IMG/VR virus record: IMGVR_UViG_2695420863_000001 | Strand: one strand, 5' to 3' | Source: a virus | Lineage: Duplodnaviria; Heunggongvirae; Uroviricota; Caudoviricetes | Length of the DNA stretch: 13,073 nucleotides | Part shown: positions 1-13,073 of the stretch, piece by piece | Position numbering within the stretch: position 1 is the first letter of the stretch | Layout of the letters: each line of letters begins with the position of its first letter | Translations under genes and position numbers: made by a program | The notes under the pieces: model-generated | Databases searched by the model: none | Told to the model about the DNA's origin: nothing | The model's input: only the letters and a program-made list of their open reading frames with translations

Positions 1-479
1 AGGGAATGCCCGTTCTGCGAGGCGGTGGCAAGGGTAATGAGGTGCTTTATGACTCTGCCGCCGTTATAAGATGGTATGCCGAAAGGGATGCTGAAATTGA
101 GAACGAAAAGCTGCGCCGGGAAGTTGAAGAACTGCGGCAGGCCAGCGAGACAGATCTCCAGCCAGGGACTATTGAGTACGAACGCCATCGACTTACGCGT
201 GCGCAGGCCGACGCACAGGAACTGAAGAATGCCAGCGAAACAGGTGAGGTAATTGACACTGCATTTGCGACTTATGCCTTGTCGAAATTAACTGGGGAAG
301 TTGGAGCAATCATTGATAGTCTTCCACTTGCGATCTGTCGACAGTTTCCTGGCATGGAAAAACGGTATCAGGACTTCATTAAGATGGAGGTCAGTAAAGC
401 ATTTATTCGAGCTTACCAGATCTCAGATAACATTCCAGATATGGCTGAAAGGTATATCAAGGATAATCAGCGAAGTTAA
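1..479 (+). CDS. nu1: Terminase small subunit Nu1, 5'-partial (reading frame enters the window at base 3; stop TAA at 477-479). The N-terminal ~100 residues seen here match lambda Nu1 closely; the last ~55 residues are diverged.
   Basis: Translation MPVLRGGGKGNEVLYDSAAV...AERDAEIENEKLRREVEELRQ matches lambda Nu1 as I recall it; ORF track 6..479. Confidence 0.9.
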   Translation, partial: GMPVLRGGGKGNEVLYDSAAVIRWYAERDAEIENEKLRREVEELRQASETDLQPGTIEYERHRLTRAQADAQELKNASETGEVIDTAFATYALSKLTGEVGAIIDSLPLAICRQFPGMEKRYQDFIKMEVSKAFIRAYQISDNIPDMAERYIKDNQRS

Positions 480-535
480 AACAAATGAAACCATAGGTAG
501 GAAGAGTGCTTAGGTGGTTCTTTGTTGCTTAAAAG

Positions 536-554
536 TCGCCAGTAAAACTGGCGA
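536..554. terminator. Possible bidirectional intrinsic terminator: 7-bp stem tcgccag/ctggcga with 5-nt loop, T-rich on both sides (plus strand tagattttatttg downstream; minus strand cttttaag downstream).
   Basis: Inverted repeat read directly from sequence, lying between the nu1 stop (479) and the stop of the minus-strand gene (586). Confidence 0.35.
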
Positions 555-585
555 TAGATTTTATTTGTCAAAAGCATTTGACCTT

Positions 586-1491
586 TTAAGGTAGTGGTAC
601 TATGGATATTTTTCTGTCGTTCCCAAATGAACTTTTAAATAATTTCGCTCTTGGATACATTTTAACTAGTGATGCGACTTCATCGAACTCGCTGGCATCA
701 AAAAGAGGACCAAGTATTACAGATTTTAACTCAAAAGGGTGAAATTTTAAGTCGCTATATTGACCAGTGCTATTTGGCCTAGCGTAGGTTGAAATTCTCC
801 ACTCTCTTTCATATGCCCATTCTTCTGTTTTTATGAATATTATCTCATTATTGATATATTCAATTGACTTATTGTCTGGCATGAAAAGCAACTCGGCCAT
901 CCCTTCAGCAGTGTGAGTTAGAGGCATTTCATCTGTGTATTTCATAGGTTTGGCTATTAACCAAGCGCTATCCAGAAAGTCTACACAATCAAATTCGATA
1001 ACTATACCTTTATATTTATCGGCATAGTGATTCCACATAGGAGTGATTATAGGGCTCTCAGATAAACACAAAATCCTTCTGTTATTAAGCATTCCTCGCC
1101 AGACATCTTTCATTTCTTGTATTGCCGCAGGAGCGCCAATCCCAACTGGTGGAATGTTTACCATTTCTTGAAATCTTTCAATTAATCCTGCGGGTATGCC
1201 TAAAGGAAATGACTTTTGGAAATCACTTAGCATTGTTCTAATTCTAGGGTTTAAATTTTGTATGTCTTCTCTGGGGGTAATCAACTCCGCTATTAACTTG
1301 CGGGCTAAAGCTTTGCCAATATTAATTTCGTTAATACCAGGCATAACTTCTCTTGGAACATCAAAAGGGTCATTAAATAGGACCGGAGAACTCCATCTAA
1401 GGCTGCATGAATCAAGAACAATCTTCGCGGTATTCAACGACATATACTTATAAAATGTTGAGCGTTCATGCATTCTGTTGGGTGAGCGCAT
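586..1491 (-). CDS. Hypothetical 301-aa protein, DUF2971-like by motif (N-terminal FYKY...FNDPFD, C-terminal YEREWR). Sole gene of an AT-rich insert that replaces the phage head module. Candidate accessory or defence gene.
   Basis: Long uninterrupted minus-strand ORF in a visibly AT-rich segment; RBS-like aagagga about 5 nt upstream of the ATG at 1491; motif resemblance to DUF2971 is from memory and not verified. Confidence 0.8.
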   Translation of the reverse strand: MRSPNRMHERSTFYKYMSLNTAKIVLDSCSLRWSSPVLFNDPFDVPREVMPGINEINIGKALARKLIAELITPREDIQNLNPRIRTMLSDFQKSFPLGIPAGLIERFQEMVNIPPVGIGAPAAIQEMKDVWRGMLNNRRILCLSESPIITPMWNHYADKYKGIVIEFDCVDFLDSAWLIAKPMKYTDEMPLTHTAEGMAELLFMPDNKSIEYINNEIIFIKTEEWAYEREWRISTYARPNSTGQYSDLKFHPFELKSVILGPLFDASEFDEVASLVKMYPRAKLFKSSFGNDRKISIVPLP

Positions 1492-1528
1492 AGATTCCTC
1501 TTGTTAAATGAGTGATGGTTTTCATCCA

Positions 1529-1549
1529 TGTATTGCACGTTGTATTGCA
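1529..1549. promoter_or_regulatory. Direct repeat tgtattgca-cgt-tgtattgca in the upstream region of the minus-strand cargo gene; possible operator or promoter element.
   Basis: Exact 9-bp direct repeat spaced by 3 nt, about 40-60 bp upstream of the cargo gene start; no strong sigma70 -35/-10 pair could be assigned by eye. Confidence 0.25.
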
Positions 1550-1625
1550 TTCAAGGATTTTCCATTTCAATTCTATAGCTAAAACGTAATCAAATCATTC
1601 ACATCCTTTCATATTTGACTCATGT

Positions 1626-2416
1626 AGCCGAAGCATGAGGTGAATCCGCAGATGACCCTGCGTCGCCTGCCGGATGAAGATCCGCAGAATCTGGCGGACC
1701 CGGCTTACCGCCGCCGTCGCATCATCATGCAGAACATGCGAGACGAAGAGCTGGCCATTGCTCAGGTCGAAGAGATGCAGGCAGTTTCTGCTGTGCTTAA
1801 GGGCAAATACACCATGACCGGTGAAGCCTTCGATCCGGTTGAGGTGGATATGGGCCGCAGTGCGGCGAACAACATCACACAGTCCGGTGGTACGGAGTGG
1901 AGCAAGCGTGACAAGTCCACGTATGACCCGACCGACGATATCGAAGCCTATGCGCTGAACGCCAGCGGAGTGGTGAATATCATCGTGTTTGATCCGAAAG
2001 GCTGGGCGCTGTTCCGTTCCTTCAAAGCCGTCAAGGAGAAGCTGGATACCCGTCGCGGCTCTAATTCCGAGCTGGAGACAGCGGTAAAAGACCTGGGCGA
2101 AGCGGTGTCCTATAAGGGGATGTATGGCGATACGGCGATCGTCGTGTATTCCGGACAGTACGTGGAAAACGACGTCAAAAAGAACTTCCTTCCGGACAAC
2201 ACGATGGTGCTGGGGAACTCTCAGGCACGCGGTCTGCGCACCTATGGCTGCATTCAGGATGCGGACGCACAGCGCGAAGGTATTAACGCCTCTGCCCGCT
2301 ACCCGAAAAACTGGGTGACCACCGGCGATCCGGCGCGTGAGTTCACCATGATTCAGTCAGCACCGCTGATGCTGCTGGCTGACCCTGATGCGTTCGTGTC
2401 CGTACAACTGGCGTAA
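1626..2416 (+). pseudogene. E: Major capsid protein E, 5'-truncated remnant. Lambda-like sequence begins about 1626; the in-frame ORF is 1640..2416 (258 of ~341 codons); the upstream frame hits TAG at 1625-1627.
   Basis: Translation NPQMTLRRLPDEDPQNLADPAYRRRRIIMQNMRDEELAIAQVEEMQ...FVSVQLA matches the C-terminal ~3/4 of lambda gpE; the N-terminal ~83 codons are absent. Confidence 0.9.
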
Positions 2417-2457
2417 TCATGGCCCTTCGGGGCCATTTTCTCTCTGTGGAGGAGTCT

Positions 2458-2853
2458 ATGACGAAAGATGAACTGATTGCCCGTCTTCAGGTGCTGGGTG
2501 AGCAACTGAACCGTGATGTCAGCCTGACGGGGACGAAAGAAGAACTGGTGCTCCGTGTGGCAGAGCTGGAAGAGGAGCTTGATGACACGGATGACGCTGC
2601 CGGTCAGGACACATCTGTCAGCCCGGAAAATGCGCTGACCGGACATGAAAATGAGGTTGTATCAGCGCAGCCGGATACCGTGACTGATACGGCTGATCTG
2701 GTCACGGTTGTGGCACTGGTGACGCTGCATACTGATGCACTTCACGCCACGCGGGATGAGGCTGTGGCATTTGTGCTGCCGGGAACGGCGTTCCGTGTCT
2801 CTGCCGGTGTGTCAGCTGAAATGACAGAGCGCGGCCTGGCCAGAATGCAATAA
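2458..2853 (+). CDS. FI: FI protein (DNA packaging / head-tail assembly accessory). Start ATG at 2458 preceded by ggagg.
   Basis: MTKDELIARLQVLGEQLNRDVSLTGTKEEL... matches lambda gpFI; the upstream in-frame ATG at 2419 is less likely (no RBS; lambda start conserved at 2458). Confidence 0.9.
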   Translation: MTKDELIARLQVLGEQLNRDVSLTGTKEELVLRVAELEEELDDTDDAAGQDTSVSPENALTGHENEVVSAQPDTVTDTADLVTVVALVTLHTDALHATRDEAVAFVLPGTAFRVSAGVSAEMTERGLARMQ

Positions 2854-2864
2854 CGGGAGGCGCT

Positions 2865-3218
2865 GTGGCTGATTTCGATAACCTGTTCGATGCTGCCATT
2901 GCCCGCGCCGATGAAACGATACGCGGGTACATGGGAACGTCAGCCACCATGACATCCGGTGAGCAGTCCGGCGCAGTAATACGTGGTGTTTTTGATGACC
3001 CTGAAAATATCAGCTATGCCGGACAGGGCGTGCGCGTTGAAGGCTCCAGCCCGTCCCTGTTTGTCCGGACTGATGATGTGCGGCAGCTGCGGCGCGGCGA
3101 CACGCTGACCATCGGTGAGGAAAACTTCTGGATAGACCGGATTTCGCCGGATGATGGCGGAAGCTGTCATCTCTGGCTTGGGCGGGGCGTACCGCCTGCC
3201 GTTAACCGTCGCCGCTGA
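2865..3218 (+). CDS. FII: FII head-tail joining protein; GTG start with gggagg RBS.
   Basis: MADFDNLFDAAIARADETIRGYMGTSAT... matches lambda gpFII (117 aa). Confidence 0.92.
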   Translation: MADFDNLFDAAIARADETIRGYMGTSATMTSGEQSGAVIRGVFDDPENISYAGQGVRVEGSSPSLFVRTDDVRQLRRGDTLTIGEENFWIDRISPDDGGSCHLWLGRGVPPAVNRRR

Positions 3219-3229
3219 AAGGGGGATGT

Positions 3230-3808
3230 ATGGCCATAAAAGGTCTTGAGCAGGCCGTTGAAAACCTCAGTCGTATCAGCAGAGCGGCGGTGCCCGGTGC
3301 CGCCGCAATGGCCATTAACCGCGTTGCTTCATCCGCGATATCGCAGTCGGCGTCACAGGTTGCCCGTGAGACAAAGGTACGCCGGAAACTGGTAAAGGAA
3401 AGGGCCAGGCTGAAAAGGGCCACGGTCAAAAATCCGCAGGCCAGAATCAAGGTTAACCGGGGGGATTTGCCCGTAATAAAGCTGGGTAACGCGCGGATTG
3501 TCCTGTCCCGACGCAGGCGTCGTAAAAAGGGGCAGCGTTCAGCCCTGAAAGGTGGCGGCAGCGTGCTTGTGGTGGGAAACCGTCGTATTCCCGGCGCGTT
3601 TATTCAGCAACTGAAACATGGCCGCTGGCATGTCATGCAGCGTGTGGCCGGGAAAAACCGTTACCCCATTGATGTGGTGAAAATCCCGATGGCGGTGCCG
3701 CTGACCACGGCGTTTAAACAGAATATTGAGCGGATACGGCGTGAGCGTCTTCCGAAAGAGCTGGGCTATGCGCTGCAGCATCAACTGAGGATGGTAATAA
3801 AGCGATGA
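3230..3808 (+). CDS. Z: Z tail completion protein.
   Basis: MAIKGLEQAVENLSRIS...HQLRMVIKR matches lambda gpZ (192 aa). Confidence 0.92.
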   Translation: MAIKGLEQAVENLSRISRAAVPGAAAMAINRVASSAISQSASQVARETKVRRKLVKERARLKRATVKNPQARIKVNRGDLPVIKLGNARIVLSRRRRRKKGQRSALKGGGSVLVVGNRRIPGAFIQQLKHGRWHVMQRVAGKNRYPIDVVKIPMAVPLTTAFKQNIERIRRERLPKELGYALQHQLRMVIKR

Positions 3809-4200
3809 AACATACTGAACTCCGTGCAGCCGTACTGGATGCACTGGAGAAGCATGACACCGGGGCGACGCTTTTTGATGGTCGCCCCGCTGTTTTTGAT
3901 GAGGAAGATTTTCCGGCAATTGCCGTTTATCTCACCGGCGCTGAATACACGGGCGAAGAGCTGGACAGCGATACCTGGCAGGCGGAGCTGCATATTGAAG
4001 TTTTCCTGCCTGCTCAGGTGCCGGATTCAGAGCTGGATGCGTGGATGGAGTCCCGGATTTATCCGGTGATGAGCGATATCCCGGCACTGTCAGATTTGAT
4101 CACCAGTATGGTGGCCAGTGGCTATGACTACCGGCGCGACGATGATGCGGGCCTGTGGAGTTCAGCCGATCTGACTTATGTCATTACCTATGAAATGTGA
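3805..4200 (+). CDS. U: U tail terminator protein; start overlaps Z stop (ATGA).
   Basis: [22 protein letters not shown]...LTYVITYEM matches lambda gpU (131 aa). Confidence 0.92.
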
Positions 4201-4207
4201 GGACGCT

Positions 4208-4948
4208 ATGCCTGTACCAAATCCTACAATGCCGGTGAAAGGTGCCGGGACCACCCTGTGGGTTTATAAGGGGAGCGGTGACCCTTATGCGAACCCGCTT
4301 TCAGACGTTGACTGGTCGCGTCTGGCAAAAGTTAAAGACCTGACGCCCGGCGAACTGACCGCTGAGTCCTATGACGACAGCTATCTCGATGATAAAGATG
4401 CAGACTGGACTGCGACCGGGCAGGGGCAGAAATCTGCCGGAGATACCAGCTTCACGCTGGCGTGGATGCCCGGAGAGCAGGGGCAGCAGGCGCTGCTGGC
4501 GTGGTTTAATGAAGGTGATACCCGTGCCTATAAAATCCGCTTCCCGAACGGCACGGTCGATGTGTTCCGTGGCTGGGTCAGCAGTATCGGTAAGGCGGTG
4601 ACGGCGAAGGAAGTGATTACCCGCACGGTGAAGGTCACCAATGTGGGACGTCCGTCGATGGCAGAAGATCGCAGCACGGTAACAGCGGCAACCGGCATGA
4701 CCGTGACGCCTGCCAGCACTTCGGTGGTGAAAGGGCAGAGCACCACGCTGACCGTGGCATTCCAGCCGGAAGGCGCAACCGACAAGAGCTTCCGTGCGGT
4801 GTCAGCGGATAAAACAAAAGCCACCGTGTCGGTCAGTGGTATGACCATCACCGTGAATGGCGTTGCTGCAGGCAAGGTCAACATTCCGATTGTATCCGGT
4901 AATGGTGAGTTTGCTGCGGTTGCAGAAATCACCGTCACCGCCAGTTAA
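4208..4948 (+). CDS. V: V major tail tube protein with C-terminal Ig-like region; start at the ATG at 4208 (lambda start [12 protein letters not shown]), not the upstream ATG at 4178.
   Basis: [31 protein letters not shown]...AEITVTAS matches lambda gpV (246 aa). Confidence 0.92.
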
Positions 4949-4963
4949 TCCGGAGAGTCAGAG

Positions 4964-5386
4964 ATGTTCCTGAAAACCGAATCATTTGAACATAACGGTG
5001 TGACCGTCACGCTTTCTGAACTGTCAGCCCTGCAGCGTATTGAGCATCTCGCCCTGATGAAACGGCAGGCAGAACAGGCGGAGTCAGACAGCAACCGGAA
5101 GTTTACTGTGGAAGACGCCATCAGAACCGGCGCGTTTCTGGTGGCGATGTCCCTGTGGCATAACCATCCGCAGAAGACAAAGCAGCCTTCCATGAATGAA
5201 GCCGTTAAACAGATTGAGCAGGAAGTGCTTACCACCTGGCCCACAGAGGCAATTTCTCATGCTGAAAACGTGGTGTACCGGCTGTCTGGTATGTATGAGT
5301 TTGTGGTGAATAATGCCCCTGAACAGGCAGAGGACGCCGGGCCCGCAGAGCCTGTTTCTGCGGGAAAGTGTTCGACGGTGAGCTGA
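4964..5386 (+). CDS. G: G tail assembly chaperone.
   Basis: MFLKTESFEHNGVTVTLSELSALQRIEHL...SAGKCSTVS matches lambda gpG (140 aa). Confidence 0.92.
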   Translation: MFLKTESFEHNGVTVTLSELSALQRIEHLALMKRQAEQAESDSNRKFTVEDAIRTGAFLVAMSLWHNHPQKTKQPSMNEAVKQIEQEVLTTWPTEAISHAENVVYRLSGMYEFVVNNAPEQAEDAGPAEPVSAGKCSTVS

Positions 5387-5802
5387 GTTTTGCCCTGAAA
5401 CTGGCGCGTGAGATGGGGCGACCCGACTGGCGTGCCATGCTTGCCGGGATGTCATCCACGGAGTATGCCGACTGGCACCGCTTTTACAGTACCCATTATT
5501 TTCATGATGTTCTGCTGGATATGCACTTTTCCGGGCTGACGTACACCGTGCTCAGCCTGTTTTTCAGCGATCCGGATATGCATCCGCTGGATTTCAGTCT
5601 GCTGAACCGGCGCGAGGCTGACGAAGAGCCTGAAGATGATGTGCTGATGCAGAAAGCGGCAGGGCTTGCCGGAGGTGTCCGCTTTGGCCCGGACGGGAAT
5701 GAAGTTATCCCCGCTTCCCCGGATGTGGCGGACATGACGGAGGATGACGTAATGCTGATGACAGTATCAGAAGGGATCGCAGGAGGAGTCCGGTATGGCT
5801 GA
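4964..5802 (+). CDS. T: G-T fusion tail assembly chaperone made by -1 frameshift at 5362-5368; the T-frame part runs ~5367..5802.
   Basis: T-frame translation FDGELSFALKLAREMGRPDWRAMLAGMSSTEYADWHRFY... matches lambda gpT; the lambda G-T frameshift is established biology. Confidence 0.85.
5362..5368 (+). other. Programmed -1 ribosomal frameshift slippery heptamer G_GGA_AAG joining G to T.
   Basis: Heptamer gggaaag sits in the G frame as G GGA AAG; the -1 frame reads on as KVFDGELSFALK..., the T ORF. Confidence 0.85.
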
Positions 5803-8257
5803 ACCTGTAGGCGATCTGGTCGTTGATTTGAGTCTGGATGCGGCCAGATTTGACGAGCAGATGGCCAGAGTCAGGCGTCATTTTTCCGGTACGGAAAGTG
5901 ATGCGAAAAGAACAGCGGCAGTCGTTGAACAGTCGCTGAGCCGACAGGCGCTGGCTGCACAGAAAGCGGGGATTTCCGTCGGGCAGTATAAAGCCGCCAT
6001 GCGTATGCTGCCTGCACAGTTCACCGACGTGGCCACGCAGCTTGCAGGCGGGCAAAGTCCGTGGCTGATCCTGCTGCAACAGGGGGGGCAGGTGAAGGAC
6101 TCCTTCGGCGGGATGATCCCCATGTTCAGGGGGCTTGCCGGTGCGATCACCCTGCCGATGGTGGGGGCCACCTCGCTGGCGGTGGCGACCGGTGCGCTGG
6201 CGTATGCCTGGTATCAGGGCAACTCAACCCTGTCCGATTTCAACAAAACGCTGGTCCTTTCCGGTCATCAGTCGGGTCTGACGGCAGATCGTATGCTGGT
6301 CCTGTCCAGAGCCGGGCAGGCGGCAGGGCTGACGTTTAACCAGACCAGCGAGTCACTCAGCGCACTGGTTAAGGCGGGGGTAAGCGGTGAGGCTCAGATT
6401 GCGTCCATCAGCCAGAGTGTGGCGCGTTTCTCCTCTGCATCCGGCGTGGAGGTGGACAAGGTCGCTGAAGCCTTCGGGAAGCTGACCACAGACCCGACGT
6501 CGGGGCTGACGGCGATGGCACGCCAGTTCCATAACGTGACGGCGGAGCAGATTGCGTATGTTGCTCAGTTGCAGCGTTCCGGCGATGAAGCCGGGGCATT
6601 GCAGGCGGCGAACGAGGCCGCAACGAAAGGGTTTGATGACCAGACCCGCCGCCTGAAAGAGAACATGGGCACGCTGGAGACCTGGGCAGACAGGACTGCG
6701 CGGGCATTCAAATCCATGTGGGATGCGGTGCTGGATATTGGTCGTCCTGATACCGCGCAGGAGATGCTGATTAAGGCAGAGGCTGCGTTTAAGAAAGCAG
6801 ACGACATCTGGAATCTGCGCAAGGATGATTATTTTGTTAACGATGAAGCGCGGGCGCGTTACTGGGATGATCGTGAAAAGGCCCGTCTTGCGCTTGAAGC
6901 CGCCCGAAAGAAGGCTGAGCAGCAGACTCAACAGGACAAAAATGCGCAGCAGCAGAGCGATACCGAAGCGTCACGGCTGAAATATACCGAAGAGGCGCAG
7001 AAGGCTTACGAACGGCTGCAGACACCGCTGGAGAAATATACCGCCCGTCAGGAAGAACTGAACAAGGCACTGAAAGACGGGAAAATCCTGCAGGCAGATT
7101 ACAACACGCTGATGGCGGCGGCGAAAAAGGATTATGAAGCGACGCTGAAAAAGCCGAAACAGTCCGGCGTGAAAGTGTCTGCGGGCGATCGTCAGGAAGA
7201 CAGTGCTCATGCTGCCCTGCTGACGCTTCAGGCAGAACTCCGGACGCTGGAGAAGCATGCCGGAGCAAATGAGAAAATCAGCCAGCAGCGCCGGGATTTG
7301 TGGAAGGCGGAGAGTCAGTTCGCGGTACTGGAGGAGGCGGCGCAACGTCGCCAGCTGTCTGCACAGGAGAAATCCCTGCTGGCGCATAAAGATGAGACGC
7401 TGGAGTACAAACGCCAGCTGGCTGCACTTGGCGACAAGGTTACGTATCAGGAGCGCCTGAACGCGCTGGCGCAGCAGGCGGATAAATTCGCACAGCAGCA
7501 ACGGGCAAAACGGGCCGCCATTGATGCGAAAAGCCGGGGGCTGACTGACCGGCAGGCAGAACGGGAAGCCACGGAACAGCGCCTGAAGGAACAGTATGGC
7601 GATAATCCGCTGGCGCTGAATAACATCATGTCAGAGCAGAAAAAGACCTGGGCGGCTGAAGACCAGCTTCGCGGGAACTGGATGGCAGGCCTGAAGTCCG
7701 GCTGGAGTGAGTGGGAAGAGAGCGCCACGGACAGTATGTCGCAGGTAAAAAGTGCAGCCACGCAGACCTTTGATGGTATTGCACAGAATATGGCGGCGAT
7801 GCTGACCGGCAGTGAGCAGAACTGGCGCAGCTTCACCCGTTCCGTGCTGTCCATGATGACAGAAATTCTGCTTAAGCAGGCAATGGTGGGGATTGTCGGG
7901 AGTATCGGCAGCGCCATTGGCGGGGCTGTTGGTGGCGGCGCATCCGCGTCAGGCGGTACAGCCATTCAGGCCGCTGCGGCGAAATTCCATTTTGCAACCG
8001 GAGGATTTACGGGAACCGGCGGCAAATATGAGCCAGCGGGGATTGTTCACCGTGGTGAGTTTGTCTTCACGAAGGAGGCAACCAGCCGGATTGGCGTGGG
8101 GAATCTTTACCGGCTGATGCGCGGCTATGCCACCGGCGGTTATGTCGGTACACCGGGCAGCATGGCAGACAGCCGGTCGCAGGCGTCCGGGACGTTTGAG
8201 CAGAATAACCATGTGGTGATTAACAACGACGGCACGAACACCCGACGTCGGGACTGA
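5795..8257 (+). pseudogene. H: Tape measure protein H, copy A: H codons 1-815 followed by 5 junk codons (TRRRD) and a stop, caused by a frame-breaking junction at 8239/8240. Truncated relative to the ~853-aa lambda gpH.
   Basis: MAEPVGDLVVDLSLDAARFDEQMARVRRHF... matches lambda gpH up to ...NNHVVINNDGTN, then departs; the expected continuation GQIGP... is seen only in copies B and C. Confidence 0.85.
6768..7975 (+). repeat. Direct repeat, copy 1 of ~1.2 kb; near-identical to 10181..11388 (offset 3413 bp).
   Basis: Identical minus-strand ORF translations in the track (6837..7268 = 10250..10681; 6971..7501 = 10384..10914; 7447..7965 = 10860..11378) plus by-eye comparison. Confidence 0.85.
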
Positions 8258-10116
8258 TGGCGATGGCGCGCCAGTTCCGTAACGTGACGGCAGAGCAGAT
8301 TGCGTATGTTGCACAGCTGCAGCGTTCCGGAGACGAGGCCGGGGCATTGCAGGCGGCGAACGATATCGCCACGAAAGGCTTTGATGAGCAGACCCGTCGC
8401 CTGAAAGAAAACATGGGAACACTGGAGACCTGGGCGGATAAAACAGGGAAGGCATTCAAATCGATGTGGGATGCCATTCTGGATATCGGTCGTCCTGAAT
8501 CCTCAGCGGATATGCTCGCCAGTGCGCAGAAGGCATTTGATGAGGCGGATAAAAAATGGCAGTGGTACCAGAGCCGGAGCCAGCGCCGGGGAAAGACCTC
8601 CTCTTTTCGTGCGAACCTTCAGGGGGCATGGGATGACAGGGAAAATGCCCGTCTGGGTCTGGCAGCGGCCACGCTGCAGTCGGATATGGAAAAAGCCGGT
8701 GAACTGGCGGCAAGGGACCGGGCTGAGCGTGAGGCGTCACAGCTGAAGTATACCGGAGAGGCGCAGAAGGCGTATGAGCGCCTGCAGACGCCGCTGGATA
8801 AATATACCGCCCGTCAGAAAGAGCTGAATAAGGCCCTGAAAGACGGAAAAATCCTGCAGGCGGATTACAACACGCTGATGGCGTCGGCAAAAAAGGATTA
8901 TGAATCGACGCTGAAAAAGCCGTCCGGTGTGAAGGTGTCTGCCGGTGAGCGCCAGGAAGACCGGGCGCATGCAGCCATGCTGGCGCTTGAAACCGAGCTC
9001 AGGACGCTGGAAAAACACAGCGGTGTGAATGAGAAAATCAGCCAGCAGCGCCGGGATTTATGGGAAGCGGAAAATCAGTATGTGGTCCTGAAAGAGGCCG
9101 CCACGAAACGGCAGTTATCTGAGCAGGAAAAATCCCTGCTGGCTCATGAGAAAGAGACGCTGGAGTACAAACGCCAGCTGGCTGAGCTGGGAGACAAGAT
9201 TGAACACCAGAAGCGGCTGAATGAGCTGGCACAGCAGGCGGCGCGGTTTGAACAGCAGCAGAGCGCGAAGCAGGCGGCAATCAGCGCAAAAGCCCGCGGC
9301 CTCACTGACCGTCAGGCGCAGCGGGAGTCGGAAGAGCAGCGCCTTCGTGAGGTGTACGGTGATAATCCGGCTGCGCTGGCGAAGGCCACATCTGCACTGA
9401 AGAACACCTGGTCTGCGGAGGAGCAGCTTCGTGGAAGCTGGATGGCCGGGATGAAGTCCGGCTGGGGCGAGTGGGCGGAAAGTGCGACGGACAGTTTTTC
9501 GCAGGTTAAAAACGCGGCCACGCAGACCTTTGACGGTATTGCACAGAATATGGCAGCGATGCTGACCGGCAGCGAACAGAACTGGCGGGGATTCACCCGT
9601 TCGGTGCTCTCCATGCTGACAGAAATTCTGCTTAAGCAGGCAATGGTGGGGATTGTCGGGAGTATCGGCAGCGCCATTGGCGGGGCTGTTGGTGGCGGCG
9701 CATCCGCGTCAGGCGGTACAGCCATTCAGGCCGCTACGGCGAAATTCCATTTTGCAACCGGAGGATTTACGGGAACCGGCGGCAAATATGAGCCAGCGGG
9801 AATTGTTCACCGCGGTGAATTCGTCTTCACGAAGGAGGCAACCAGCCGGATTGGCGTGGGGAATCTCTACCGGCTGATGCGCGGCTATGCCACCGGCGGT
9901 TATGTCGGTACACCGGGCAGCATGGCGGACAGCCGGTCGCAGGCGTCCGGGACGTTTGAGCAGAATAACCATGTGGTGATTAACAACGACGGCACGAACG
10001 GTCAGATAGGGCCACAGGCACTGAAGGCTGTTTATGACGTAGCCCGTAAGGCGGCAATGGATGTTGTGACCGGGCAGATGCGCGATGGTGGTCTGTTCTC
10101 CGGAGGTGGACGATGA
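8240..10116 (+). pseudogene. H: Tape measure H, copy B: internal fragment from about H codon 233 (TDPTSGLTAMARQF) to the native C-terminus, out of frame with copy A. Diverged allele with a strongly divergent central block and small indels.
   Basis: ORF 8257..10116 translation parallels copy A from ARQFRNVTAEQIAYVAQLQRSGDEAGALQAAN... and ends with the lambda H C-terminus ...QMRDGGLFSGGGR; lacks the H N-terminus. Confidence 0.8.
9621..10116 (+). repeat. Direct repeat of the H 3' end; apparently identical to 11274..11769 (offset 1653 bp).
   Basis: Identical track ORFs 9653..9877 and 11306..11530; by-eye comparison of flanking bases. Confidence 0.8.
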
Positions 10117-10187
10117 AAACCTTCCGCTGGAAAGTGAAACCCGGTATGGATGTGGCTTCGGCCCCTTCTGTAAGAAAGGATGATTAA
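10113..10187 (+). pseudogene. M: M tail protein fragment: first 22 codons of M (MKTFRWKVKPGMDVASAPSVRK), then the junction into H copy C and a stop after 2 further codons.
   Basis: Bases 10113-10179 match the start of the intact M at 11766-11832; the ATG overlaps the copy-B stop exactly as in the intact H/M junction. Confidence 0.8.
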
Positions 10188-11388
10188 GGCAGAGGCTGCG
10201 TTTAAGAAAGCAGACGACATCTGGAATCTGCGCAAGGATGATTATTTTGTTAACGATGAAGCGCGGGCGCGTTACTGGGATGATCGTGAAAAGGCCCGTC
10301 TTGCGCTTGAAGCCGCCCGAAAGAAGGCTGAGCAGCAGACTCAACAGGACAAAAATGCGCAGCAGCAGAGCGATACCGAAGCGTCACGGCTGAAATATAC
10401 CGAAGAGGCGCAGAAGGCTTACGAACGGCTGCAGACACCGCTGGAGAAATATACCGCCCGTCAGGAAGAACTGAACAAGGCACTGAAAGACGGGAAAATC
10501 CTGCAGGCAGATTACAACACGCTGATGGCGGCGGCGAAAAAGGATTATGAAGCGACGCTGAAAAAGCCGAAACAGTCCGGCGTGAAAGTGTCTGCGGGCG
10601 ATCGTCAGGAAGACAGTGCTCATGCTGCCCTGCTGACGCTTCAGGCAGAACTCCGGACGCTGGAGAAGCATGCCGGAGCAAATGAGAAAATCAGCCAGCA
10701 GCGCCGGGATTTGTGGAAGGCGGAGAGTCAGTTCGCGGTACTGGAGGAGGCGGCGCAACGTCGCCAGCTGTCTGCACAGGAGAAATCCCTGCTGGCGCAT
10801 AAAGATGAGACGCTGGAGTACAAACGCCAGCTGGCTGCACTTGGCGACAAGGTTACGTATCAGGAGCGCCTGAACGCGCTGGCGCAGCAGGCGGATAAAT
10901 TCGCACAGCAGCAACGGGCAAAACGGGCCGCCATTGATGCGAAAAGCCGGGGGCTGACTGACCGGCAGGCAGAACGGGAAGCCACGGAACAGCGCCTGAA
11001 GGAACAGTATGGCGATAATCCGCTGGCGCTGAATAACATCATGTCAGAGCAGAAAAAGACCTGGGCGGCTGAAGACCAGCTTCGCGGGAACTGGATGGCA
11101 GGCCTGAAGTCCGGCTGGAGTGAGTGGGAAGAGAGCGCCACGGACAGTATGTCGCAGGTAAAAAGTGCAGCCACGCAGACCTTTGATGGTATTGCACAGA
11201 ATATGGCGGCGATGCTGACCGGCAGTGAGCAGAACTGGCGCAGCTTCACCCGTTCCGTGCTGTCCATGATGACAGAAATTCTGCTTAAGCAGGCAATGGT
11301 GGGGATTGTCGGGAGTATCGGCAGCGCCATTGGCGGGGCTGTTGGTGGCGGCGCATCCGCGTCAGGCGGTACAGCCATTCAGGCCGCT
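10181..11388 (+). repeat. Direct repeat, copy 2; near-identical to 6768..7975.
   Basis: As above. Confidence 0.85.
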
Positions 11389-11769
11389 ACGGCGAAATTC
11401 CATTTTGCAACCGGAGGATTTACGGGAACCGGCGGCAAATATGAGCCAGCGGGAATTGTTCACCGCGGTGAATTCGTCTTCACGAAGGAGGCAACCAGCC
11501 GGATTGGCGTGGGGAATCTCTACCGGCTGATGCGCGGCTATGCCACCGGCGGTTATGTCGGTACACCGGGCAGCATGGCGGACAGCCGGTCGCAGGCGTC
11601 CGGGACGTTTGAGCAGAATAACCATGTGGTGATTAACAACGACGGCACGAACGGTCAGATAGGGCCACAGGCACTGAAGGCTGTTTATGACGTAGCCCGT
11701 AAGGCGGCAATGGATGTTGTGACCGGGCAGATGCGCGATGGTGGTCTGTTCTCCGGAGGTGGACGATGA
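10181..11769 (+). pseudogene. H: Tape measure H, copy C: fragment from about H codon 324 (LIKAEAAFKKADD) to the native C-terminus. Copy-A-like in its 5' ~1.1 kb and copy-B-like in its last ~0.4 kb.
   Basis: ORF 10180..11769; reverse-strand ORFs in the track are identical between A and C at a constant offset of 3413 bp and between B and C at offset 1653 bp. Confidence 0.8.
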
Positions 11770-12095
11770 AAACCTTCCGCTGGAAAGTGAAACCCGGTAT
11801 GGATGTGGCTTCGGCCCCTTCTGTAAGAAAGGTGCGCTTTGGTGATGGTTATTTCCAGCGAGCGCCTGCCGGGCTGAATGCCAACCTGAAAACGTACAGC
11901 GTGACGCTTTCTGTCCCCCGTGAGGAGGCCACGGTACTGGAGTCGTTTCTGGCTGAGCACGGGGGCTGGAAAGCCTTTCTGTGGACGCCGCCTTATGAGT
12001 GGCGGCAGATAAAGGTGACCTGCGCAAAATGGTCGTCGCGGGTCAGTATGCTGCGTGTTGAGTTCAGCGCAGAGTTTGAACAGGTGGTTAACTGA
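11766..12095 (+). CDS. M: M tail tip assembly protein (intact); start overlaps H copy C stop.
   Basis: MKTFRWKVKPGMDVASAPSVRKVRFGDGYFQRAPAGLNANLKTYSVTLSVP... matches lambda gpM (109 aa). Confidence 0.92.
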   Translation: MKTFRWKVKPGMDVASAPSVRKVRFGDGYFQRAPAGLNANLKTYSVTLSVPREEATVLESFLAEHGGWKAFLWTPPYEWRQIKVTCAKWSSRVSMLRVEFSAEFEQVVN

Positions 12096-12793
12096 TGCAG
12101 GATATCCGGCAGGAAACACTGAATGAATGCACCCGTGCGGAGCAGTCGGCCAGCGTGGTGCTCTGGGAAATCGACCTGACAGAGGTCGGTGGAGAACGTT
12201 ATTTTTTCTGTAATCAGCAGAACGAAAAAGGTGAGCCGGTCACCTGGCAGGGGCGACAGTATCAGCCGTATCCCATTCAGGGGAGTGGTTTTGAACTGAA
12301 TGGCAAAGGCACCAGTACGCGCCCCACGCTGGCAGTCTCTAACCTGTACGGCATGGTCACCGGGATGGCGGAAGATCTGCAGAGTCTGGTCGGCGGAACG
12401 GTGGTCCGGCGTAAGGTTTATGCCCGTTTTCTGGATGCAGTGAACTTCGTCAACGGAAACAGCGACGCCGATCCGGAGCAGGAGGTGATCAGCCGCTGGC
12501 GCATCGAGCAGTGCAGCGAACTGAGCGCGGTGAGTGCCTCCTTTGTACTGTCCACGCCGACTGAAACGGATGGCGCTGTTTTTCCGGGTCGTATCATGCT
12601 GGCCAACACCTGCACCTGGACCTATCGCGGCGATGAGTGCGGTTATCACGGTCCGGCTGTCGCGGATGAATATGACCAGCCGACGTCCGATATCACGAAG
12701 GATAAATGCAGCAAATGCCTGAGTGGCTGTAAGTTCCGCAATAATGTCGGCAACTTTGGCGGCTTCCTTTCCATTAACAAACTTTCGCAGTAA
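12095..12793 (+). CDS. L: L tail tip assembly protein; start overlaps M stop (TGATG).
   Basis: MQDIRQETLNECTRAEQSASVVLWEIDLTEVGGERYFFCN... matches lambda gpL (232 aa). Confidence 0.92.
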   Translation: MQDIRQETLNECTRAEQSASVVLWEIDLTEVGGERYFFCNQQNEKGEPVTWQGRQYQPYPIQGSGFELNGKGTSTRPTLAVSNLYGMVTGMAEDLQSLVGGTVVRRKVYARFLDAVNFVNGNSDADPEQEVISRWRIEQCSELSAVSASFVLSTPTETDGAVFPGRIMLANTCTWTYRGDECGYHGPAVADEYDQPTSDITKDKCSKCLSGCKFRNNVGNFGGFLSINKLSQ

Positions 12794-12798
12794 ATCCC

Positions 12799-13073
12799 AT
12801 GACAGAGACAGAATCAGCGATTCTGGCGCACGCCCGGCGATGTGCGCCAGCGGAGTCGTGCGGCTTCGTGGTGAGAACGCCGGAAGGGGAAAGATATTTT
12901 CCCTGTGTGAATATCTCCGGTGAGCCGGAGGCGTATTTCCGTATGGCTCCGGAGGACTGGCTGCAGGCAGAGATGCAGGGTGAGATTGTGGCGCTGGTCC
13001 ACAGTCACCCCGGTGGTCTGCCCTGGCTGAGTGAGGCCGACCGGCGGCTGCAGGTGCAGAGTGATTTGCCGTG
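12799..13073 (+). CDS. K: K tail assembly protein, 3'-partial (runs off the window end).
   Basis: Translation from the ATG at 12799, MTETESAILAHARRCAPAESCGFVVRTPEGERYFPCVNISGEPEAYFRMAPEDW..., matches the lambda gpK N-terminus. Confidence 0.85.
   Translation, partial: MTETESAILAHARRCAPAESCGFVVRTPEGERYFPCVNISGEPEAYFRMAPEDWLQAEMQGEIVALVHSHPGGLPWLSEADRRLQVQSDLP

Follow-up and report, generated by a model that had tools for sequence, protein, structure and literature searches.

A hybrid copy of tape-measure gene H in a defective lambda-like Escherichia coli prophage: exchange between two H alleles or a switch of assembly path

Mosaics of lambdoid phages and prophages have been described as products of relaxed homologous recombination, in which two diverged sequences are joined in register within a short segment of identity (De Paepe et al., 2014; PMC3945230). 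Minimal pairing segments were given as 31-34 bp for RecA and 23-27 bp for Red-beta, and the median mosaic size was 404-494 bp in temperate and defective E. coli phages. Non-homologous joints were held to be much rarer than homologous exchange (PMC3945230).

Phage lambda has a single tape-measure gene, H (853 codons), located between genes T and M. Katsura and Hendrix, in their protein-ruler experiments, reportedly changed tail length by deleting or duplicating parts of lambda H in frame. Tandem duplications of phage lambda DNA carrying a novel head-to-tail joint are known from classical lambda genetics. The locus described here shares features with each of these: within a stretch of 13,073 nucleotides (the window), three partial copies of H (copies A, B and C) followed one another, and the third was a hybrid of the H alleles carried by the other two.

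The window covered the late (head-tail) region of a defective lambda-like E. coli prophage, and all of it had matches in lambda and in many E. coli prophages (Table 1). Tail tube V and chaperone G were also recognised by Pfam. The gene order V-G-T-H-M-L was found from Pfam matches to V, G, M and L together with collinearity with strain ECA64 and lambda. The reverse-strand DUF2971 gene stood where lambda has its genes from A to the 5' portion of E, so the prophage is defective, and an intact H would therefore be dispensable and no effect on tail length is expected. This layout, with a DUF2971 gene for head genes, was present in 31 of 5,426 complete E. coli genomes, of which strain ECA64 was the nearest relative. 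The 301-aa DUF2971 protein matched the PADLOC candidate defence family PDC-S31 (E = 2.5e-32).

Table 1. Coordinates of recognised genes, H copies, joints and the crossover interval in the window.
Feature	Coordinates	Strand	Basis
Nu1	6-479		Pfam
DUF2971 gene, 301 aa, between Nu1 and truncated E	586-1491	-	Pfam
Major capsid gene E, 5'-truncated	1640-2416		Pfam
Copy A, H nt 1-2445, A-type throughout	5795..8239	+	Translation; Pfam TMP_2 and Tape_meas_lam_C
Joint 1, A-type H nt 2445 to B-type H nt 698	8239..8240	+	Comparison with native A and B flanks
Copy B, H nt 698 to stop (10116) and M nt 1-67	8240..10179	+	Pfam Tape_meas_lam_C
Truncated M' ORF, 24 aa, product of joint 2	10113..10187	+	Translation MKTFRWKVKPGMDVASAPSVRKDD*
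Joint 2, M nt 67 to A-type H nt 974	10179..10181	+	Flank comparison
Copy C, A-type part, H nt 974-2062	10181..11269	+	Register-by-register comparison
Crossover interval, 119 nt, same in A, B and C	11270..11388	+	Register-by-register comparison
Copy C, B-type part, H nt 2182 to stop (11769) and M nt 1-67	11389..11832	+	Identical to B 9736-10179
Gene M (minor tail protein), intact, 3' of copy C	11766..12095	+	Pfam Phage_min_tail
Gene L (minor tail protein L)	12095..12793	+	Pfam Phage_tail_L

In place of one continuous H ORF (about 853 aa) from T to M, the window had three ORFs of 820, 619 and 529 aa; the reference prophages had one ORF of 853-859 aa. The Tape_meas_lam_C domain (PF09718) was found in all three ORFs (E = 2e-21 to 3e-22). 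The N-terminal TMP_2 domain (PF06791; E = 3e-69) was found in copy A only and is missing from copies B and C because these start at H nt 698 and 974. The three copies are thus fragments of lambda gene H and not three tape-measure genes, and an intact tape-measure protein is not encoded, as H is split into fragments with overlapping ORFs. The best reference genomes used about 9,660 bp for the region that takes 13,073 bp in the window, and the surplus of 3,413 bp equalled the spacing from copy A to copy C. The extent of copy B had to be corrected from that in the first-pass annotation (8700..10116), as its actual start and end were at 8240 and 10179.

Both joints were out of register, with 0-1 nt of microhomology. 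Joint 1 was blunt, without microhomology, and shifted the reading frame. The frame of copy A crossed it and stopped at 8257, giving a product of 820 aa with the abnormal tail NTRRRD*. The sequence TGATG created at 8255-8259 made the TGA of the copy A ORF overlap the ATG of the copy B ORF (8257-10116, 619 aa). Joint 2 held one orphan base (A at 10180) and no useful microhomology. Its product, the truncated M' ORF, overlapped the ATG at 10180 of the 529-aa copy C ORF, and the real M and L came next. The stop/start overlaps at both joints would permit translation coupling in principle and are probably coincidence. Chi sites were absent from the window, and a search for hairpins and inverted repeats at the joints and the crossover gave nothing of note, with one 8-nt pair only.

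The three copies were compared in a three-way MAFFT alignment and register by register. Copy C equalled copy A exactly over 1,208 nt (C 10181-11388; A 6768-7975) and copy B exactly over 563 nt (C 11270-11832; B 9617-10179). The three copies agreed completely over a stretch of 119 nt (A 7857-7975, B 9617-9735, C 11270-11388), which was the longest perfect tract between A and B, the next longest being 72, 64 and 59 nt. It codes for a glycine-rich hydrophobic stretch right behind the Tape_meas_lam_C domain. Over the length covered by copy A, the informative columns, which distinguish A from B, were partitioned without exception in copy C: 318 were A-type, the last at 11269, and the seven that followed were B-type (11389, 11454, 11466, 11472, 11475, 11520 and 11580). 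The probability that seven B-type sites stand last among 325 by chance was 1.4e-14, and the probability that seven random changes in 264 nt all hit the B state was about 4e-15. A chance origin of the partition was ruled out by these probabilities, which are of the order of 1e-14. Past the end of copy A, the pure A-type allele of ECA64 was used for comparison; it differed from copy C at 39 sites within 11389-11815, and copy C had the B state at all of them. Copies B and C were identical throughout 11389-11815.

The A-like then B-like composition of copy C, noticed in the first-pass annotation, was therefore borne out by the 318 A-type and seven B-type columns. The switch interval proposed there (11274-11389; A 7861-7975) was within 4 nt of the measured interval (11270-11388), and the protein differences quoted (SFTRSVLSMM against GFTRSVLSML, and AAAAKF against AATAKF) were recovered in the translations. 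A diversity-generating retroelement was considered as a source of the differences and rejected; the seven differences were G/A, T/C and A/G transitions in both directions, whereas such an element would change only adenines of one copy. No reverse transcriptase was found among the Pfam matches of the ten window proteins scanned, nor among the annotated features of the ECA64 region collinear with window 1-8239.

Comparison with natural alleles identified the parents of copy C. Window 1-8239 was 99.4% identical to strain ECA64, gap-free and with no mismatch past 7625, so copy A is a pure natural allele, its 3' part included. The left 6,760 nt by themselves were only 99.3% identical to this nearest relative. 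There was no indel against ECA64 in window 1-8239, and the quality of the consensus is therefore high. The M/L arm (11833-13073) was only about 97% identical to ECA64, against 99.4% for the left arm, and its best match was another, intact prophage in strain CH4793 (99.2%); the two arms of the window thus differ in their nearest relative.

Copy B was 99.7% identical to H in strain BEC1-S17-ESBL-09, where the B-type H sits in a separate, complete-looking lambdoid prophage, and 99.5% identical to H in O55:H7 strain DEC5D. In blocks of 100 alignment columns, B was 36-90% identical to A over A 6489-7866 and 95-100% identical from A 7867 on. Given the low identity upstream of the shared tract, copy B is a foreign allele and not a diverged duplicate. 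Many E. coli genomes hold A-type and B-type H in separate prophages, strains E2865 and FORC_069 among them. Allele B carried an 18-nt insertion relative to A and C (8552-8569), A and C carried a 6-nt insertion (GAAACA) relative to B (7156-7161), and a module at A 6785-6966 was non-homologous between the alleles (36-49% identity). H is composed of allele-specific modules.

Private variants tied copy C to both neighbours. Copies A and C shared four variants relative to ECA64 (7024/10437, 7096/10509, 7174/10587 and 7625/11038, each pair 3413 nt apart). Copies B and C shared two variants without counterpart in the closest database B alleles (9736/11389 and 10169/11822). Both donors of copy C are therefore the alleles present in this window, and the exchange was recent and local. 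The 563-nt tract common to B and C had two mismatches to natural B alleles, and the A-type allele of strain A1 differed from it at no fewer than nine sites. As this tract is far closer to natural B than to any A-type allele, the direction was B-type into C.

Strain A1 (NZ_CP029328.1) itself carried a natural single-copy mosaic H that was A-type to 11520 and B-like from about 11580 (window positions), with M and L close to those of the window. It had 17 mismatches over 10800-12300, compared with 37 mismatches within 11389-11745 alone for the pure A allele of ECA64. Its switch was in register and lay about 150-200 nt downstream of the switch in copy C, so this part of H recombines in nature, at another point. 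Among lambdoid prophages, in-register recombination recurs at the 3' end of H.

The rearranged structure rests on one sequence, and neither its joints nor its ORF products were present in any other collection searched. BLAST queries of 241 nt across joints 1 and 2 against the 5,426 complete E. coli genomes matched by their halves only, with no match covering at least 80% of a query. Neither joint was found by exact searches of viral, species-representative genome and metagenome contig collections, or among phage collection records. A 521-nt query across the A/B switch had no 100% match in the 5,426 complete E. coli genomes; the best matches were 98.7-98.8% identical, with 6-7 mismatches, as expected for pure A-type alleles at the seven sites. 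A natural single-copy allele with the copy C switch was not found in these searches, the nearest mosaic being that of strain A1 with its switch elsewhere. Exact look-ups of the three H ORF products gave no record in 153 billion gene positions, and a literature search for tape-measure duplications gave nothing directly relevant. PhiR12_2_star (PV340551.1) and PhiR5_1 (PV340545.1), each with H annotated as two CDS divided near its 3' end, were set aside as frameshift-type splits and not duplications.

Two explanations had been offered together in the first-pass annotation, namely recombination or gene conversion between the repeats and an assembler switching paths. As a pair they agreed with the perfect partition and with a switch in the longest identical tract. 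They also agreed with the lack of the mosaic in the 5,426 genomes and with the private variants (four shared by C and A, two by C and B). The evidence supports this pair; it excludes chance and makes an inherited mosaic allele of older date improbable.

Between the two, the reading leaned towards, at somewhat better than even confidence, is that copy C was made by homologous exchange or gene conversion, in register, of B-type DNA into an A-type fragment. The first 1,089 nt of copy C would then derive from the A-type allele of copy A and the last 444 nt from the allele of copy B, with the switch placed in register within the 119-nt tract in which the two alleles agree. The likely driver would be homologous recombination by host RecA or by a Red/RecT-type annealing enzyme of a phage, acting either by gene conversion, with a short patch copied non-reciprocally, or as one among several switches of template from one lambdoid H allele to another. 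This exchange may have been one step in a wider rearrangement, both recent and private, of the defective prophage, in which two illegitimate out-of-register joints brought in the B-type fragment and an additional A-type fragment. We infer that the exchange took place in the cell, and likewise the enzyme responsible and the order of events.

Several observations agree with such an exchange. The switch is in register and in the longest tract of identity, as homologous recombination predicts, and the 119 nt of perfect identity exceed the minimal pairing segments (23-34 bp) several-fold. The B-like tract in copy C, of 444-563 nt, agrees with the reported median mosaic of 404-494 bp (PMC3945230). 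An identifiable donor identical to the tract was present, as B 9617-10179 equalled C 11270-11832 with the two private variants included. Simple crossing-over of B with C was rejected, whether within a molecule or between sister molecules. It would delete or add a copy, so the event was non-reciprocal or belonged to a series of template switches. That an A-type middle copy was replaced through homology was likewise rejected, as B-type sites start 13 nt past joint 1. Homology cannot account for the two illegitimate joints, which as independent events in one gene and one lineage are improbable and count against the exchange reading. The identity of the shared parts of the copies, at 100%, also counts against it, as collapsed repeats of an assembly graph would look alike.

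The far end of the B-like tract bears on how the exchange may have run. With ECA64, BEC1 and DEC5D as proxies, the tract in copy C ended within 11815-11849, a 33-nt bracket that holds 11832, and position 11832 corresponds to the cut-off of copy B itself at joint 2 (10179). This coincidence suggests that one template served twice, be it copy B or B-type DNA terminating at M nt 67, or else that there was one replication-based episode; independent events do not account for it. Copy B as the donor would require a conversion tract that ended at most 17 nt from the end of B/C homology (last B-specific site 11815, homology end 11832), which is awkward. In the replication-based variant, a nascent strand switched repeatedly between the A-type prophage and a B-type DNA fragment that physically ended at M nt 67, and so made both joints and the switch. 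One event would then account for a pair of rare joints within the gene; these are blunt or have a single filler base, and the B-type template was left twice at one coordinate, out of register at 10179 and in register at 11815-11849. The second of these exits is placed from proxy alleles only (L002 and L006). This single episode is considered unlikely as a specific account; being a variant of the recombination reading, its weight is not to be added to those given to exchange, to an assembly artefact and to an inherited mosaic.

An artefact of assembly is the main rival and is possible, though less probable than exchange. Here an assembler threaded collapsed exact repeats (1,208, 563 and 119 nt) into one contig, with the path from A to B switched in the 119-nt node. 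Joints 1 and 2 would be real and would lie in different loci or in a differently ordered locus. Examples are an exchange between prophages that gave two hybrid prophages, later merged in assembly, and a different order of the segments, with the hybrid as the first copy and of full length. The switch does lie exactly where the three copies agree, in sequence common to the alternative paths, which is compatible with an artefact and not proof of one, and identity is 100% across all shared segments, which a collapsed graph would also give. The many genomes with both H types in separate prophages (as in E2865 and FORC_069) also favour this rival. The window opens within Nu1 and closes within the gene that follows L, each a conserved lambdoid gene of the sort in which short-read contigs typically break, and its structure was unique among all databases searched. 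A second order of segments uses each segment equally often, and reads shorter than 1.2 kb cannot distinguish the two.

Shared sequence does not explain all of the odd joins, however. Joints 1 and 2 are out of register and have no shared k-mer, which means that they must have been present in the reads. Assemblers based on k-mers or overlaps do not make up non-homologous joints, and the multi-copy structure, at least, is therefore likely physical. Random chimeric reads would not arise twice in one gene, in the same orientation and 1.9 kb apart, and there were zero indels against ECA64 over 8.2 kb. Concatenation of contigs, considered since joint 1 sits 2 nt before the alleles diverge, was rejected: the ends lay off branch points, and there was no duplicated k-mer and no run of N. 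If the joints are single-copy and in one locus, there are only two orders of segments, each with one chimera that is A-type upstream and B-type downstream. The order other than that of the window puts the hybrid first, as a full-length, in-frame H of 853 aa, so that a switch of path can only move the chimera to the first copy and not remove it. The hybrid vanishes only if joints 1 and 2 belong to different loci, which is possible. A further rival, an inherited mosaic H allele (A-type 5', B-like 3') that was kept as copy C with no exchange between the copies of the window, is improbable. H is highly mosaic, strain A1 has a natural A-type/B-like allele, and a deletion between repeats A and C would leave an in-frame H of 853 aa, all of which speak for it. 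Yet the copy C switch was found in none of the 5,426 genomes, and C equals B over 563 nt with two variants that have no match in the nearest natural B alleles. Within this tract, 9 sites also separate copy C from the A1-type allele, and the end of the B-like tract (11815-11849) coincides with the end of copy B (11832), which suggests a link to copy B.

If real, the locus is a clean and very recent snapshot of the reshuffling of lambdoid prophages, with both parental alleles side by side and with one homologous exchange in a 119-bp identity tract beside two illegitimate joints in one gene. It would be a useful illustration and would leave knowledge of phage mosaicism unchanged. The hybrid copy C should not be taken for a new tape-measure variant, nor the three ORFs be annotated as three tape-measure genes. 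A functional reading, in which the rearrangement is real and selected, can be put forward only as speculation and is very improbable. The three H fragments would be produced through coupling of stop and start codons (TGATG at 8255-8259, and the M' stop beside ATG 10180), and the free C-terminal fragments would hinder superinfecting lambdoid phages in assembling tails or in DNA entry. They would thus be a decoy-type defence beside the candidate DUF2971/PDC-S31 gene.

Among known systems, lambdoid mosaics made by relaxed homologous recombination (De Paepe et al., 2014; PMC3945230) resemble copy C in their in-register switch within a short identical tract between diverged flanks. They also resemble it in patch size and in their occurrence in defective E. 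coli lambdoid prophages. The present locus differs from them in that donor and recipient are adjacent in one locus, as partial copies of a gene, and in that the exchange is accompanied by two non-homologous joints.

The tandem duplications of lambda resemble the locus in their direct, overlapping copies and in their novel joints from downstream to upstream sequence. The arrangement 1-2445, 698-M67, 974-end is the one that two nested duplications would be expected to produce. Novel head-to-tail joints were present here (8239/8240 and 10179/10180), but the middle copy is a different allele and the joints break the reading frame. A simple tandem duplication was rejected on this ground. Copies A and C are identical where both are A-type, but copy B is a foreign allele, and at 36-90% identity per block it is not a duplicate of the neighbouring DNA.

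The lambda H ruler mutants involve the same gene and, like the window, include duplicated internal H sequence. Here joint 1 shifts the frame, so that no lengthened ruler protein is made, and the prophage is without most head genes, so that no tail-length phenotype is expected. Repeat-induced misassembly of E. coli genomes with several prophages is similar in its switch within an exact repeat, its identical copies and its contig ends in conserved lambdoid genes; in contrast, the two joints of the window are without the shared sequence that graph and overlap assemblers require. Overall, the copy C locus either shows known processes in an instance private to this sequence or is an artefact, and it is not a new type of system.
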